Below, one piece after another: positions 8,697-55,511 of a DNA stretch of 64,000 bases. Source of the DNA: Clostridia bacterium (GTDB taxonomy: Bacteria > Bacillota > Clostridia > Oscillospirales > Acutalibacteraceae); assembly GCA_017379935.1 (NCBI GenBank), contig JAFNVC010000025.1:44217-108216 (forward strand). The letters run 5' to 3'. Positions within the stretch are counted from its first letter, which is position 1. The number at the start of each line of letters is the position of its first letter. A program made the translations under genes and the position numbers. Under the pieces are notes generated by a model. That model was not told the DNA's origin, did no database searches, and saw nothing but the letters and a program-made list of their open reading frames with translations.

Positions 8697-8776
8697 TCCA
8701 CTCCTTAAATAGATTAGGTATATTGTAGATTATATCATAATCATTTGAAAAAGCCAATAGTTTTTTGTAAAAATTA

Positions 8777-10021
8777 TCAAATTCCCTGCTCGTCGAACAA
8801 AAACGCTGTTTCAAGAGCAATTTTAAGTCCTGTTTCAAGCATTTTCGGATCAAGATTATCCTCTGTGTCAAGACGGGTGTGGTAATATCTTGCGGGAGAG
8901 GGATCCATTGCCGTGAAGGCTGATGCAGGGATACCTGCCTGCGACATTGCGGCAGCATCCGTTGAGCCGAGCTCGATTGCCTTTACAGGCACGTCGTGGC
9001 CGACATTTTTAGCCGCCTGCTGAAGAAGAGCTGCAACGCGCTTGTCGTTCTTCACCATACCTGTCATATCCTTATCATAAATCGCCATAAAGTCGATTTC
9101 GCGGATTGTATCAAGAGAGATAAATACCGTTTCAACACCGTCTGACTTCATTTCGTCAGCGTGAGCCTTTGCCCATGCCTTTGAGCCTCGAAGGCCTGCC
9201 TCTTCACCGCCTGCCATAAGTGCAACAACCTCTGTATTCTCAAAGCGGATGTTGTTCGCATCCATAAACTTGAGCACAGCCGCAGAAACCATACAGCCCG
9301 AAAGGTCATCGTTTGCACCTGTTACGGGGCGCTTGTAGTTACAGAAAAACAATGCCGCAGCCATAACGGGAACAGTAACGTACATAACAACCGCAATAAT
9401 CTTCATTGCGAGGTTATCGTCTGTCCAGACGATGCCGTCACCTGCGATAATACCGTAGATTCCGCCGCCGATGCTAAGAAGAACGGCAATAACTGCAGTT
9501 ACGATAATGCCCGCAACAACGGGTCTGCCGCCGTGATAGGTGTAAGTCCATTCGAACGCGGAGTCAACGTGACCTGAGAAGATGATTCTTCTTTTTGTCT
9601 CGCCCGTTGCCTTGCGGATACCCGTTACATTCATCGACTTTTTCTTCGGGAAGAAGATGTCGAGAACAGGCTTGTAGAAAATAAACTCTGCAAGGATAAG
9701 GAAAAGAGTCACACAGCCCGCAACGAGTGAAACAACCGGAAGACCGAGAGTGAAGAAAATTGTTGAAAGAATAATTGCAACCGCACCGATGGGCACCCAT
9801 GACATAAAAGCCTTGTCAGAGCACTTATAATCCTCCTTAAGAACCGTATCGCAGGTTGTCGAAAGCTCGTTTGCAAGATATTCCTGCGCACTAAGCTCAG
9901 CCTCACTGCCGACAGGGCGCGGACCGAAATTCTTACACATCGTTTTGATGTGCTTGATTGCATAGTTGGTGTAAAGTCTTACTTCAGAATCGTATCTTGC
10001 GACACTTTCATTCGGTTTCAT
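8777..10021 (-). CDS. M28-family zinc aminopeptidase with inserted transmembrane segments
   Basis: 414 aa. Metal-ligand motifs are in M28 order: 'SGHVDS', 'ANDDLSG', 'GGEEAGLRGS', 'ISLD', 'YYHTRLD'. Four to five hydrophobic helices are inserted between the first motifs. Confidence 0.7.
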   Translation of the reverse strand: MKPNESVARYDSEVRLYTNYAIKHIKTMCKNFGPRPVGSEAELSAQEYLANELSTTCDTVLKEDYKCSDKAFMSWVPIGAVAIILSTIFFTLGLPVVSLVAGCVTLFLILAEFIFYKPVLDIFFPKKKSMNVTGIRKATGETKRRIIFSGHVDSAFEWTYTYHGGRPVVAGIIVTAVIAVLLSIGGGIYGIIAGDGIVWTDDNLAMKIIAVVMYVTVPVMAAALFFCNYKRPVTGANDDLSGCMVSAAVLKFMDANNIRFENTEVVALMAGGEEAGLRGSKAWAKAHADEMKSDGVETVFISLDTIREIDFMAIYDKDMTGMVKNDKRVAALLQQAAKNVGHDVPVKAIELGSTDAAAMSQAGIPASAFTAMDPSPARYYHTRLDTEDNLDPKMLETGLKIALETAFLFDEQGI

Positions 10022-28321: not shown

Positions 28322-28444
28322 TCTTTCGGCACCTCCATTTAACCGGTAAATCCGGAATTATAAGCCTCCCTCGTAACGGAACAAACACCCTGTAAGTTCC
28401 TAAAAGAGGGCACAAAAAAAGAACCCTCTACAAGAGGTAGAGAT

Positions 28445-51630: not shown

Positions 51631-52845
51631 ATGAAATTTAACGATAACAAAAATATATCCGAGGGCTTGCGCCGCTCTGCCGAATGCGCAGTGCTTCTCG
51701 GTGCCGCTATCCTTCTCGGCTTAATCGGCGGTGCAGTCGGCGGTTTGTTCGCACGGAGCATCACCTTTGTCAGTGATTTAAGAGCAGAAAACAGTTGGCT
51801 TATATATCTTCTCCCCGTCGGCGGTCTTGCTACCGTTGCGATATACAAGCTGACAAAAACCGAGGGTATCGGCACGGACCGTGCGCTCGAAAGCGCGCAG
51901 GGTGAGGCACGGACACCGATTCTGCTCATTCCCGCAATCTTCATTTCCTCCGTCATAACCCACCTTCTCGGCGGCTCAGCGGGCAAGGAGGGCGCGGCAC
52001 TCCAGCTCGGAAGCGGCTCGGCTGAGCTTGTTTCCAAAATAATTAAAGCGGACAGCAAAACCCGTTCAATTCTTACCATCTGCGGTATGTCGGCGCTTTT
52101 TTCCGCCGTTTTCGGAACACCTATCGGCGCCTGTGTTTTTGCACTCGAGGTTGCGGTAGTCGGTAGCTTCAACGCCGCCGCGATCTTTCCCGCGCTCGTT
52201 TCAAGCGTTACCGCTCATCTGATTTCAACGGCAATCGGTGCCGCGCACGAGAATTTTCTCCCCGAGGCAGTACCCGACACCTCACTTATTCCGCTCTTAA
52301 AAACTCTGGCAATCGCGGCGATCGTCTCGCTTGCAGCCAATGTCTTCTGCCGTCTTATGCATGGCGGTAAAAAGCTTTTTGCAAGCACGTTTAAAAATCC
52401 GTTTTTACGTATTTTCGTCGGCGGATGCGCAGTAATCGCGCTGACGCTTATCTTCGGAACAGATTATAACGGCGGCGGATTTTTTGTAATCGAGCGCATT
52501 TTCGAGGAAGGCACGGTTCGCCCCGAGGCTTTCCTTCTGAAAATTCTTTTCACCGTTATCACTATCAGCGCAGGCTACAAGGGCGGTGAGATTGTACCGT
52601 CATTTTTCATCGGTGCAACACTCGGCGCAACGCTTTCGGGACTTTTCGGCTTGCCGATGAGTTACTGTGCGGCTATCGGAATGACCGCATTTTTCGGCGG
52701 TGTAACGAACTGTCCGATTGCATCTGCGGTGATTGCGGTTGAGCTTTTCGGCGCAAACGGATTTATACTCTTTACCGCCGCGGCATTCGCAACGCGGGTA
52801 TTCTCGGGCAAGGTCAGCCTTTATAACAAACAGAAAACCGCTTAA
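51631..52845 (+). CDS. ClC-family voltage-gated chloride channel / anion:proton antiporter
   Basis: 404 aa, polytopic. 'GGSAGKEGAALQLG', 'FGTPIGACVFALE', 'GYKGGEIVPSFFIGA' match ClC selectivity-filter segments. Confidence 0.8.
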   Translation: MKFNDNKNISEGLRRSAECAVLLGAAILLGLIGGAVGGLFARSITFVSDLRAENSWLIYLLPVGGLATVAIYKLTKTEGIGTDRALESAQGEARTPILLIPAIFISSVITHLLGGSAGKEGAALQLGSGSAELVSKIIKADSKTRSILTICGMSALFSAVFGTPIGACVFALEVAVVGSFNAAAIFPALVSSVTAHLISTAIGAAHENFLPEAVPDTSLIPLLKTLAIAAIVSLAANVFCRLMHGGKKLFASTFKNPFLRIFVGGCAVIALTLIFGTDYNGGGFFVIERIFEEGTVRPEAFLLKILFTVITISAGYKGGEIVPSFFIGATLGATLSGLFGLPMSYCAAIGMTAFFGGVTNCPIASAVIAVELFGANGFILFTAAAFATRVFSGKVSLYNKQKTA

Positions 52846-52856
52846 AAAGCCGAAAG

Positions 52857-52884
52857 CGGAGACCGCTGAAGCAGTCTCCGTTTT
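52857..52884. terminator. bidirectional terminator
   Basis: CGGAGAC-10 nt-GTCTCCG followed by TTTTC. An A-rich run lies on the left. Confidence 0.7.
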
Positions 52885-52889
52885 CAATA

Positions 52890-53201
52890 TTATTTGCGTA
52901 TCAGATCTTTAACAAGTGTCGCGATTGTATCGAGCTGTTTATCGTCAAGACACTTGAGGTCTTTTATAATCGAATCGAGCTTTGTCGGATTTTTAGACTC
53001 CGTATCAAAAAATTCAGCGGGAGTTACACCGAGAAAATGACAAATGTAAAAAAATACCGTCATTGACGGGAAATTAACACCGTTCTCAACATTGTTAATA
53101 TAACCTGCACTCTGCCCTATCGATAAACTCATATCTCGTGCGGATACACCTTTGTTCATTCTTAATTCAACCAATCGTTTGATGAACTGCTCTTTCTCCA
53201 T
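52890..53201 (-). CDS. XRE-family HTH transcriptional regulator
   Basis: 103 aa from the ATG at 53201 (RBS AAAGGTGGGTGA, which the track start at 53222 would include). 'RLVELRMNKGVSARDMSLSIGQSAGYINNVENG'. Confidence 0.85.
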   Translation of the reverse strand: MEKEQFIKRLVELRMNKGVSARDMSLSIGQSAGYINNVENGVNFPSMTVFFYICHFLGVTPAEFFDTESKNPTKLDSIIKDLKCLDDKQLDTIATLVKDLIRK

Positions 53202-53220
53202 ACAACTCACCCACCTTTGC

Positions 53221-53232
53221 ATATAATTATAC
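53221..53232. promoter_or_regulatory. operator-like palindrome ATATAATTATAc (11/12), overlapping a minus-strand TATAAT for the XRE gene
   Basis: Read directly. Its centre lies 63 bp from the second copy. The minus-strand TATAAT is at 53226-53231, 25 nt upstream of the XRE ATG. Confidence 0.45.
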
Positions 53233-53276
53233 TAAACATATCGCTCATATTCGTCTAATTAAATCATCAATATGCA

Positions 53277-53305
53277 TTGACACATATAATTATATTAGAT
53301 ATAAT
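53277..53305 (+). promoter_or_regulatory. perfect consensus SigA promoter TTGACA-17-TATAAT with no annotated plus-strand gene downstream
   Basis: -35 at 53277-53282, 17-nt spacer, -10 at 53300-53305. Confidence 0.6.
53284..53295. promoter_or_regulatory. operator-like perfect 12-bp palindrome ATATAATTATAT inside the spacer of the plus-strand promoter
   Basis: Read directly. It lies between the -35 (53277-53282) and the -10 (53300-53305). Confidence 0.45.
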
Positions 53306-53311
53306 AGATAT

Positions 53312-53445
53312 ATATTCTATTTCAATTAGTATTATATGCAAAAGCTGTTATTTAAATCTTATTCGACGGCTATACACACGGTTGCTTTGATAGCGCGCTC
53401 GATAAGATAGCCCGACGAACTTCAGAAGTCCGTCGGGCATTTTTT
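53312..53445 (+). ncRNA. candidate transcript of about 130 nt (sRNA, or leader with a 24-codon ORF lacking an SD)
   Basis: Bounded by the consensus promoter and a strong plus-oriented terminator. Contains ATG 53336..TAG 53410 (MQKLLFKSYSTAIHTVALIARSIR) with no SD. The upstream CGACGG (53362-53367) could compete with the terminator 5' arm. Confidence 0.3.
53410..53445. terminator. intrinsic terminator (best U-tract on the plus strand; also ends the convergent HTH-SOR gene)
   Basis: GCCCGACG..ACT-loop-AGT..CGTCGGGC followed by ATTTTTT on the plus strand. On the minus strand it is followed by UAUCUUAUC. Confidence 0.75.
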
Positions 53446-54028
53446 ATATCCTTTTTTTCATCAGTCCGTGCTTGTTGCAGTAAATGAACAGATATCCTCT
53501 GCCTCGGAGCTGAAGGCGCGTTTCCGCATTACCCTCGGGATAGAGCTTCACGAACTGTACCCTGTCCGACGTCAGATGCGCGATGAAGGAAATGAAATGT
53601 GTTTTCGTCATCTCGTGCCTGACCGTAACGAAATATTCGTCCTCTACCCTCTCAACGGTGACCTCGTGAGCATCGTCGGTTTCCTCCGCCTCGAGCGGCG
53701 GCAGAGTAATTCCGCAGCAGCTGATAGCCGCCTCACCTGTCGAGCGGATGATGTTACCGCACACGGGACAGACATAAAACCTCGAGCGCAGTATGTTTGC
53801 GGAAATATTTTTATTGTTGACCGTGTCGCCCGACATAAGCTCCATAACAGACACCCCCAGCGCCCTCGCAAGCGGTTCAATCAGAGTGATGTCAGGCAGT
53901 CCCTTCGCCGTCTCCCACTTCGAAACAGCCTTGCTGCTGACGCCGATTTTTTCGGCAAGCTGTGTCTGCGTTATTCCCTTTGCCTCGCGCAGACGCTTTA
54001 TCGTCGCACCTGTGATGTAGTTATCCAT
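53444..54028 (-). CDS. XRE-type HTH fused to a desulfoferrodoxin (2Fe superoxide reductase)-like domain
   Basis: 194 aa. Residues 1-65 read 'TIKRLREAKGITQTQLAEKIGVSSKAVSKWETAKGLP'. Residues about 85-194 carry 'FYVCPVCGN..SCCG' (centre I Cys4) and 'AHEV', 'RHEM', 'THF', 'YCNKHG' (centre II His4Cys), in Dfx order and spacing. Confidence 0.7.
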   Translation of the reverse strand: MDNYITGATIKRLREAKGITQTQLAEKIGVSSKAVSKWETAKGLPDITLIEPLARALGVSVMELMSGDTVNNKNISANILRSRFYVCPVCGNIIRSTGEAAISCCGITLPPLEAEETDDAHEVTVERVEDEYFVTVRHEMTKTHFISFIAHLTSDRVQFVKLYPEGNAETRLQLRGRGYLFIYCNKHGLMKKRI

Positions 54029-54049
54029 TCAGATCACTCCTTTGCAACG

Positions 54050-54078
54050 ATTATAAGCTCTCCCGTTAAAACATACAA
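54050..54078 (-). promoter_or_regulatory. SigA-type promoter of the HTH-SOR gene (TTGTAT-17-TATAAT)
   Basis: Minus strand: -35 at 54073-54078, -10 at 54050-54055. RBS AAAGGAGTGA follows. Confidence 0.55.
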
Positions 54079-54104
54079 CCTACGCTTCGTGGAATAGGAT
54101 ATTC

Positions 54105-55511
54105 TCAGAATCTTGTCCAGAAATCAACACCCCACGGGTGTGACTGCTCCTGCCATTCGTCGCGGTGGCGGAGCAATTTTTCGCGCATCTGAGCAACCTT
54201 GTCGGCATATTTTTCGTCGTCGGCAAGATTTTTTGTTTCCCACGGATCGTTTTCGATATCATAAAGGAAGGTCCACTTGTCCTCTTCCCCGTCGCCGTTG
54301 CGGTATTCGATGAGCTTGTATTTTTCATCCTTCACACCGCGGACAAATTTATCAAAAATCAGATAAAGCTCGTCGCGGAAGCGGTCGCCGTGTTCACCGT
54401 CGAGAAGGTGTGCAAAGCTCCTTCCGTCAACTGAGGACGGCACGTCAATGCCGATTTTTTCACACAGCGTGGGGAAAATATCGTAAAGATAAACGTAGGC
54501 GTCGTTGCGCGCATTTTCCGCAATTCCCGGCCCCGCCATAATCAGCGGAATACGGACACCGTGCTCGTAAATATCCTCCTTACCGAGCCAGCCGTGCTGA
54601 CCGACGGCAAGACCGTTGTCGCCCGTAAAGACAATAATAGTGTTGTCCTCCTCGCCCGAAGCGTGAAGAGCATCAAGAAGTCTGCCGATTTCGTGGTCGA
54701 GGTGAGTTATCATCGCGAAGTATTCCGCTATATGTCGTCTTACCTCCCTTTCGTCACGCGGATATGCCGCGAGATGCTCGTCGCGGTGCACCATAAGGGG
54801 GTAGTTCGTGTCGATAATCTCCTGAAAATTCGGCGGCAGCTCGATTTTTTCGGGATCGTACATCTCACGGAAGCTGTCGGGCATCGTGCGCGGATCGTGA
54901 GGCGCAAGATAAGCAAGGTACATAAAAAACGGCTTTTCCCCGTTTGCGTTTTCACCGAGCAGCTCTATCGCCGCATCCGTCAGCAGAGTGCTTGAATGCT
55001 TGCCCGGGTCGAACTCGTCGCAGTGCTGTGACTGCGGATGATTGTCGCTGTAAAAATCCACCACAAAATTGATCACATTGTCATATTTGCCCGTCGGATC
55101 ATATCGGCAGGTCGGCACATTCCAATGGTCCCACATTCCGCCAAAAAATATCTTTGCGCCCTGCGTAAAGCTTCGCGCATAGGCAGGACAGCCGTTATGC
55201 CATTTGCCGAGTCCGATTGTCTCGTAACCGTTATTTCTGAACGTTTCGGCAAGGGTTTTGTGTGCCTCGGGGATATTTCCGCCAAGCTCCTCAAGGTGAA
55301 AGGGATTTCTGCCCGAAAGAATCATCGCACGGCTGGGCATACATACCGCACCGCAAGTTCCGCCCGCAATATGCGCACGGACAAACGACATACCACGTCC
55401 CGCGAGCCTGTCGAGATTCGGCGTAATAATCTCCTTGTTGCCGAGAGCGTGAATCGTATCAAAGCGCTGATCGTCGGTAACGATAAACAGCACGTTTGGC
55501 TTTTTGTTCAT
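54105..55511 (-). CDS. Cys-type (formylglycine-dependent) sulfatase, no signal peptide
   Basis: 468 aa from the ATG at 55511 (RBS GGGTGGTG). 'NVLFIVTDDQR', 'CMPSRAMILSGR' (C-x-P-x-R), 'GKWH', 'TGDNG'. Confidence 0.85.
   Translation of the reverse strand: MNKKPNVLFIVTDDQRFDTIHALGNKEIITPNLDRLAGRGMSFVRAHIAGGTCGAVCMPSRAMILSGRNPFHLEELGGNIPEAHKTLAETFRNNGYETIGLGKWHNGCPAYARSFTQGAKIFFGGMWDHWNVPTCRYDPTGKYDNVINFVVDFYSDNHPQSQHCDEFDPGKHSSTLLTDAAIELLGENANGEKPFFMYLAYLAPHDPRTMPDSFREMYDPEKIELPPNFQEIIDTNYPLMVHRDEHLAAYPRDEREVRRHIAEYFAMITHLDHEIGRLLDALHASGEEDNTIIVFTGDNGLAVGQHGWLGKEDIYEHGVRIPLIMAGPGIAENARNDAYVYLYDIFPTLCEKIGIDVPSSVDGRSFAHLLDGEHGDRFRDELYLIFDKFVRGVKDEKYKLIEYRNGDGEEDKWTFLYDIENDPWETKNLADDEKYADKVAQMREKLLRHRDEWQEQSHPWGVDFWTRF

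Follow-up and report, generated by a model that had tools for sequence, protein, structure and literature searches.

The 64,000-nucleotide stretch of DNA considered here (the window), taken from a contig of a Clostridia bacterium of the family Acutalibacteraceae (JAFNVC010000025.1), carries on its minus strand, at 53444–54028, a gene of 194 codons plus a stop codon, beginning with ATG. Its protein joins an N-terminal helix-turn-helix (HTH) domain of the Cro/C1 type (XRE family) to a desulfoferrodoxin (Dfx) module, the kind of superoxide reductase (SOR) that carries two iron centers (2Fe-SOR), and a conserved motif abuts the promoter of the gene. That the protein is an autoregulated one-component transcription factor responding to oxidants or to redox state is the likeliest of the readings weighed here, at about even odds.

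The architecture itself is already known. SORGOdb defined it as the class HTH-Dx-SOR, with 19 proteins, on domain content alone (Lucchetti-Miganeh et al. 2011; PMC3116461), and the paper is silent on regulation, DNA binding, function, an operator, variation in the ligands, and distribution in metagenome-assembled genomes (MAGs) from the gut. Functionally, the class is uncharacterized: no functional study of HTH-Dx-SOR proteins was found in the open-access full-text literature, nor any report in the open-access literature of a transcription factor using the SOR fold. An earlier note on this DNA, made from the letters alone, had said that no characterized HTH-SOR regulator was known, and this holds as far as function is concerned, but the architecture entered a catalogue in 2011 and is named in some JGI and NCBI records. 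Two proteins from the literature were rejected as relatives, C. difficile OseR, which is Spx/YusI-like, and T. denticola TrtA, a 104-residue XRE protein without an SOR domain.

The fusion protein and its family

The HTH occupies residues 1–66 (53831–54028). Pfam, a search of the PDB, and Foldseek all find a Cro/C1-type, five-helix HTH there, as the earlier note had supposed: HTH_3 covers residues 10–64 (E 5e-16), and in an AlphaFold2 model built from 30 homologues, the N-terminal 63 residues superpose on the P22 c2 repressor with a TM score of 0.92 (rmsd 0.9 Å, 33% identity). The recognition helix corresponds to about residues 32–39 (SKAVSKWE), and its pattern, S-D/S-K-A/T-V/I-S-K-W-E, is kept across clades. 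In and around it, residues R14, Q21, S36, W38, E39, G43, P45, and D46 do not vary among diverse members of the family. The model (mean pLDDT 86.7) has two well-folded domains, separated by a linker at residues 67–82 (53783–53830) in which G67, N72, and N78 are conserved and confidence is low (pLDDT below 50 at residues 71–75).

Beyond the linker lie a desulforedoxin-like center I with the pattern CPVC-x13-CC (residues 83–110, 53699–53782), delimited by alignments with Dfx, and the β-sandwich of SOR center II (residues 111–194, 53447–53698), delimited by the same alignments and by Foldseek. The Pfam searches suggested in the earlier note gave, besides the strong match to HTH_3, a score for Desulfoferrodox (PF01880) of 23.3 bits, barely over its gathering score of 22.2, and one for Desulfoferrod_N of 15.9 bits, under the cut-off of 23. 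The NCBIfam profile TIGR00320 (dfx_rbo) aligns with residues 83–191 (E 5e-12), its 46.1 bits not reaching the equivalog cut-off of 146.9. A phmmer search of the PDB matches residues 81–191 with Dfx from D. baarsii and D. desulfuricans (E 2e-7 to 5e-7), and a profile made from 25 diverse family members matches along the entire Dfx chain (E 7e-18). In a set of 25 diverse members, PF01880 finds just 11 at E < 0.01. It is because the SOR module scores at or under the Pfam thresholds that database names are uninformative; the public MAG proteins identical to this one are named just "helix-turn-helix domain-containing protein".

Superposition of the model leads to the same conclusion. Its C-terminal part, of 120 residues, matches T. 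pallidum SOR (TM 0.81, rmsd 1.9 Å) and Dfx (2ji2 and 1dfx; TM 0.74, rmsd 2.7 Å, 121 columns), the latter with all nine ligands in aligned columns. C87, C90, C104, and C105 of center I align with the Cys residues of Dfx, and H121, H138, H144, C184, and H187 of center II with H49, H69, H75, C116, and H119 of D. baarsii Dfx, so that each iron ligand named in the earlier note, with minor renumbering, has its counterpart. On the evidence of the profiles, the PDB search, and the predicted structure, the fusion of an HTH to a complete Dfx module is borne out, and a full 2Fe-SOR fold with all nine metal ligands is confirmed for residues 81–194. The protein has the features by which the HTH-Dx-SOR class is recognized (an HTH, a CxxC...CC center I, and four His plus one Cys at center II). 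Its spacings, CxxC-x13-CC and H-x16-H-x5-H-x39-C-x2-H, are close to the canonical ranges but outside them (CxxC-x15-CC and H-x19-27-H-x5-H-x40-63-C-x2-H; PMC11980386).

The earlier note had remarked that the Glu-Lys pair before the first His of center II, EKH in catalytic SORs, is missing here. It is replaced by DAH (D119-A120-H121), within the acidic stretch 113-EAEETDDAH-121, and the replacement is a trait of the family rather than of this protein only: Lys immediately precedes the first His in 6 of 129 diverse family sequences and in no case among the 224 cluster representatives of the window's clade, and the residue three positions before that His is Asp or Glu in at least 90%. Relative to Dfx there are three deletions, of two residues in the center I loop, three in the Glu47-Lys48 loop, and three before the second His. 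Lys48 reportedly attracts superoxide and helps to protonate the intermediate, a finding attributed to Lombard et al. in 2001. Since the corresponding loop is here short and acidic and has no Lys, the sequence argues against efficient superoxide catalysis, without excluding catalysis.

The family is large. When the C-terminal 120 residues served as query in an exhaustive search, 511 clusters (at 50% identity) were found with E ≤ 1e-10, many of them of 190–200 residues with the match at residues 76–194, and a search of species-representative genomes with an alignment of eight closer sequences gave at least 599 matching stretches and at least 577 confirmed relatives. Among the matches listed, the hosts are mostly Acutalibacteraceae, Faecousia, Oscillospiraceae, and Lachnospiraceae, with several Treponema as well, and the nearest relative is from an Acutalibacteraceae MAG (87% identity). 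A second, more distant clade, about 45% identical, is found in cultured Clostridia (C. formicaceticum, Peptoclostridium litorale, Crassaminicella, Vallitalea); a few of its records at JGI and NCBI are titled "XRE family transcriptional regulator/desulfoferrodoxin". Because the same architecture of about 194 residues recurs in hundreds of species, the possibility that the open reading frame (ORF) is two genes merged by a sequencing error, raised in the earlier note, can be ruled out, and the ORF is genuine.

All nine ligands are invariant in the 224 cluster representatives of the window's clade, so the metal sites are evidently under purifying selection. The family at large is more permissive, with 62% of the 129 diverse sequences retaining all nine. 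Among diverse members, C87, C90, and C104 never vary, and conservation of C105 is 90% or more. H187 is replaced by Asp in about 19–20% of the 129 (often together with C105 by His, in a subgroup from Lachnospiraceae), and a few family members have lost several ligands of center II. Such variants make obligatory catalysis hard to reconcile with the family as a whole.

The Lachnospiraceae subfamily just mentioned (loci L055, L068 from Roseburia porci, and L078), in which CC has become CH (C105H) and H187 has become Asp or Ser, also shares a conserved C-terminal tail of about 30 residues, KGIDDR..GYDD..ERR.LE..A..LFG. The altered metal sites in both centers suggest that it has diverged in function. 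Proteins of 115–120 residues that resemble standalone Dx-SORs (P0174–P0177, P0193, P0230, P0232, and similar ones) start at the internal Met of NMxRxxFYVCP and are probably N-terminally truncated calls of the fusion gene, not a family without an HTH. On the opposite strand of the window, an antisense ORF of 209 codons (53468–54097, plus strand) exceeds the real gene in length, and its like recurs over homologous loci (three ORF clusters); it is likely a spurious call, such as a gene caller guided by length could make. An origin of the family in phages or plasmids was considered and rejected, as just three matches came from unannotated "Bacteriophage sp." fecal contigs and five from PLSDB, two of the five being ordinary Dfx. 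No sign of a prophage context was seen at the fusion gene.

A motif at the gene's own promoter

The promoter proposed in the earlier note, TTGTAT-17-TATAAT, was found, with its −35 hexamer (TTGTAT) at 54073–54078 and its −10 hexamer (TATAAT) 17 nt farther on at 54050–54055, followed by a ribosome binding site (AAGGAG, 54037–54042) 8 nt before the ATG that is conserved in upstream alignments. When the 160 nt preceding the gene were aligned from 82 loci, a motif stood out from flanks that are otherwise unrelated. Its consensus is TCTACG-N3-CGTAGGTTG, in full form T-C-[T/C]-A-C-[G/T]-N3-C-G-T-A-G-G-T-T-G, and it is present with at most three mismatches at 78 of the 82 loci and with at most one at 50 of them. 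The register is fixed: CTACG-N3-CGTAG, one base, the TTG of the −35 hexamer, 17 nt, and TAnAAT, with a TG extension of the −10 hexamer in about half of the loci and the ATG 47–50 nt past the motif. TTG holds the same register in 60–78 of the 78 loci, and TAnAAT is kept in register throughout the family.

In the window the site reads CCACGAAGCGTAGGTTG (54092–54076), that is, CCACG-AAG-CGTAG and then GTTG, with one mismatch to the consensus, and it is the single site within the 64 kb. The palindrome proper, 54080–54092, is centered at about −43, given a start of transcription predicted 7 nt past the −10 hexamer.

The motif belongs to the family almost without exception. Matches with at most one mismatch on both strands of 720 kb of loci number 50, all of them at the family's own promoters, and a degenerate form of the palindrome, sought in 784 kb of loci, gave 35 own sites and 1 other. 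Metagenomes contain at least 123 exact matches; among the matches listed, 56 precede a family gene, 4–5 more lie on truncated contigs, and nearly all of the remainder lie on GC-rich environmental contigs without a correctly spaced −10 box. Among the matches listed, the sole credible promoter outside the family with the exact motif and the correct −35/−10 geometry is that of an isochorismatase-like gene at locus L114. The motif moves with the gene into Treponema, and in the distant clade its left half and the CGT are kept, as AACTCTACG-N3-CGTTTATTGAA.

Since the cis element is exclusive to the family and travels with the gene, the motif can most simply be taken as the place where the encoded HTH protein binds, in other words, as a candidate autoregulatory operator. 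That the HTH binds DNA is made very probable by the presence of a conserved motif on the gene's own promoter. This motif is new here and sets the relevant cis element within 54076–54092, providing a defined DNA probe for direct tests of regulation.

Two other repeats may be mentioned. In Acetoanaerobium noterae (locus L211), inverted arms GTCTACGG and CCGTAGAC, 13 nt apart, lie upstream of a two-gene unit consisting of an ORF of 117 codons and then the fusion gene. The sequence in question, NZ_CP154629.1, is filed as "plasmid pTPELB2", with four annotated features in 2.63 Mb, and is thus a replicon of chromosomal size filed as a plasmid. Within the window, at 28427–28441, the sequence TCTACAAGAGGTAGA contains a 5-bp inverted repeat like the core of the operator, in an intergenic region upstream of an ORF of 549 codons; repeats of this sort occur at chance level (2 found, 1.9 expected).

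Genomic surroundings

Upstream of the fusion gene, at a distance of 76 nt and in the same orientation, is a sulfatase gene; the fusion gene is convergent with a small XRE gene with an AT-rich repeat region. The earlier note had placed it downstream of the sulfatase and next to a palindrome-controlled "switch region" (53221–53295), and had called for a survey of conserved neighbors. Neither association is conserved, and a link to either is not supported. When all ORFs within ±4 kb were clustered for 83 loci, no family of neighbors occurred at more than 6 of the 83, and so what adjoins the fusion gene here (sulfatase, small XRE gene, "switch region") is specific to the lineage. The fusion gene is typically a stand-alone unit.

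Six nucleotides past the stop codon, a terminator scan found a GC-rich hairpin (53410–53438; inverted repeat I5) with 14-nt arms of 93% complementarity, an A-tract on the side of the gene, and a T-run on the plus strand, which looks like a bidirectional terminator. A perfect σ70-type promoter, TTGACA-17-TATAAT, at 53277–53305 on the plus strand is aimed at the 3' end of the fusion gene, and about 105 nt past it come the same strong hairpin and T-run, giving a predicted transcript of about 135 nt. The predicted transcript (53277–53447) has a fold z-score of −2.95, owing mostly to the terminator, and a possible ORF of 24 codons with its ATG at 53336; no Rfam match near threshold was found within 52800–54200. 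The small XRE gene (110 codons, minus strand; region 52890–53303) is divergent from this promoter, and between the two lie repeated CATATAATTATA boxes and several AT-rich inverted repeats. The layout resembles that of cI and Cro and is confined to contigs of the same species (L001–L003), not being conserved with the HTH-Dx-SOR family.

The distant clade has neighbors of its own. At two loci, a gene for a CAT-like acetyltransferase overlaps the fusion gene at its stop codon, and isochorismatase-family genes recur nearby (for these two kinds of genes, L210 2792–4600; L213 6001–7247; L215 4376–4900). The promoter outside the family at L114 (region 8768–9340) likewise drives an isochorismatase-like gene. 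In C. formicaceticum and Peptoclostridium litorale, genes for a glycyl-radical enzyme and its radical-SAM activase adjoin the fusion gene (L212 2322–5598; L214 7150–10292). Both of these proteins are highly sensitive to oxygen, although their proximity may be coincidental. The cases of acetyltransferase, isochorismatase, and glycyl-radical enzyme genes are too few to name a partner.

Sensor, self-regulating enzyme, or metal-dependent regulator

The sensing of oxygen and reactive oxygen species in strict gut anaerobes (Oscillospiraceae, Acutalibacteraceae, Lachnospiraceae) is largely uncharted, and the SOR fold has so far been known only as a detoxifying enzyme. We put forward, tentatively and with a little less than even confidence, that in strictly anaerobic gut Clostridia, where it is widespread, and by transfer in Treponema, the fold serves as the sensory module of a transcription factor that senses oxidants or redox state directly and acts through TCTACG-N3-CGTAG. 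In the mechanism we have in mind, an HTH like that of P22 c2 and λ cI (residues 1–66) would be joined by a flexible linker to a two-iron Dfx module, which would provide both dimerization (2Fe-SORs are dimers) and a redox-active signal input. The protein would bind the motif abutting the −35 hexamer of its own σA promoter, the reduced (ferrous) form sitting on the site and most likely repressing transcription of the gene. The solvent-exposed Fe(His)4Cys center would be oxidized by O2, superoxide, H2O2, or NO, a process counterbalanced by re-reduction through center I and cellular reductants, and the oxidation would change the acidic loop before His121, or the linker, such that DNA binding is released or remodeled. 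What we infer is that this protein binds the motif, whether it represses or activates, what it senses, and which distal genes, if any, it controls.

Several considerations weigh against this account. First, a site near −43 that abuts the −35 hexamer matches the geometry of λ cI at OR2 with respect to PRM, so activation in place of repression is possible by analogy, though helix 2 was not found to carry a conserved acidic patch such as would hint at it. Second, the right half of the motif in the distant clade is not palindromic (CGTTT for CGTAG), which makes simple binding by a symmetric dimer uncertain. Third, no credible regulon site beyond the gene's own promoter was found in the window, in the 720–784 kb of loci, or in the metagenomes, except that at L114, and a pure sensor that controls no other gene would have little point, barring distal sites. 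With the gene itself as the sole target found, a self-regulating enzyme fits equally well. Finally, a working SOR would require the complete set of ligands just as much, and catalytic activity persists in SORs that lack the canonical Lys (Ignicoccus hospitalis) or Glu (Nanoarchaeum equitans); their structures, 4brj and 6gq8, are among the Foldseek matches. The statement in the earlier note that the protein is a sensor rather than an enzyme therefore survives only in part: the loss of Lys extends to the whole family, but the activity of SORs lacking Lys or Glu and the restriction of the targets found to the gene itself leave the choice between sensor and enzyme less clear than it had seemed.

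The serious rival, though on balance we think it unlikely, is that the protein is a trigger enzyme, a genuine if atypical SOR whose HTH merely tunes its own synthesis. Superoxide would oxidize the reduced enzyme bound to the operator, the enzyme would leave the DNA, and synthesis would rise until reductants restored the ferrous state. Such a cycle would account for a conserved site found only at the gene's own promoter, for the lack of conserved neighbors, and for the joint passage of gene and operator across phyla, as into Treponema; it would also be in keeping with two iron sites that are complete and, in the window's clade, invariant, and with a family profile that matches the whole chain of Dfx. 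What tells against it is the family-wide absence of the catalytic Lys from a loop that is acidic and shortened, the persistence in the family of H187D, C105H, and degenerate variants, and the distance from catalytic Dfx (23–29% identity, and 46 bits against an equivalog cut-off of 146.9). A DNA-bound repressor, moreover, is made in few copies and so is poorly suited to be an enzyme.

It is improbable, in our estimation, that the protein is a metal-dependent regulator with no redox sensing, in which the Dx-SOR fold, loaded with iron or zinc, would serve for dimerization and DNA binding would report the metal or be constitutive. Center I is indeed the most conserved part of the protein across the family, with C87, C90, and C104 invariant, while the ligands of center II vary in other clades (H187D and outright losses), and 2Fe-SORs are, as mentioned, dimeric. 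However, a purely structural role would have no need of five center II ligands invariant in 224 of 224 sequences of the window's clade, an open Fe(His)4Cys site is by nature reactive toward redox agents and ligands, and anaerobes of this kind normally sense iron by proteins of the Fur/PerR type. Least credible of all, and very improbable, is the idea that the N-terminal domain does not bind DNA, being purely structural like the XRE-like domains of HppE, HEPD, and MPnS, with the motif bound by another factor and the protein just an iron enzyme or electron carrier: Foldseek does list HppE, MPnS, and HEPD, each of which joins an XRE-like domain to a mononuclear iron cupin enzyme, and these precedents mean that fusions of XRE and iron enzyme can be non-regulatory, but the matches are at rmsd 13–15 Å (TM about 0.3) against 0.9 Å and 33% identity for P22 c2, the recognition helix is conserved, and the site of an unrelated global regulator would be expected before other genes too, whereas the motif is exclusive to the promoters of the family.

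The choice matters for a family that is usually annotated just as a "helix-turn-helix domain-containing protein", although it is found in no fewer than 577 species-level genomes and its metagenomic protein clusters number in the thousands. If DNA binding is under the control of the iron module, then the SOR fold would for the first time be seen as the basis of a transcription factor, and if the protein is a sensor as proposed, it would represent a new class of iron-based regulator of oxidative stress. If it is instead a self-regulating SOR, then gene and operator would constitute a compact cassette for detoxification that can be passed on horizontally, and the list of trigger enzymes would grow by one.

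Set beside known systems, the protein has the same architecture as the HTH-Dx-SOR class of SORGOdb (an HTH, then a CxxC...CC center, then the ligands of SOR center II), with no structural difference. It shares its two-domain fold (TM 0.74) with the 2Fe-SORs of Desulfoarculus baarsii and Desulfovibrio desulfuricans (2ji1–3, 1vzg, 1dfx) and differs from them in the extra N-terminal HTH, in a sequence only 23–29% identical, in a center I with x13 in place of x15, in the substitution of Asp-Ala for Glu47-Lys48 in an acidic loop, and in three-residue deletions before both the first and the second His. Its HTH belongs to the Cro/C1 family, along with those of P22 c2, 434, and λ cI, and the N-terminal domain lies on P22 c2 at 0.9 Å; the candidate operator abuts the −35 hexamer with its center near −43, close to where λ cI sits at OR2 with respect to PRM. 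Unlike the phage repressors, the protein carries at its C-terminus a metalloprotein fold rather than a dimerization/cleavage domain of the LexA/S24 type, its gene shows no sign of lying in a prophage, and its candidate operator has half-sites of 5 bp and a spacer of 3 bp. SoxR, PerR, FNR, and NorR are functional analogues only, sharing the concept of a redox-active iron center coupled to DNA binding in one polypeptide for the sensing of oxidants or NO, while their folds and metal sites are unrelated to those found here ([2Fe-2S] in the MerR-type SoxR, Fe-His in the Fur fold of PerR, [4Fe-4S] in the CRP fold of FNR, and the Fe of a GAF domain in NorR). With trigger enzymes such as PutA and BirA there is no homology, but there may be a shared logic, in which the catalytic or redox state of a protein sets its own binding to DNA.

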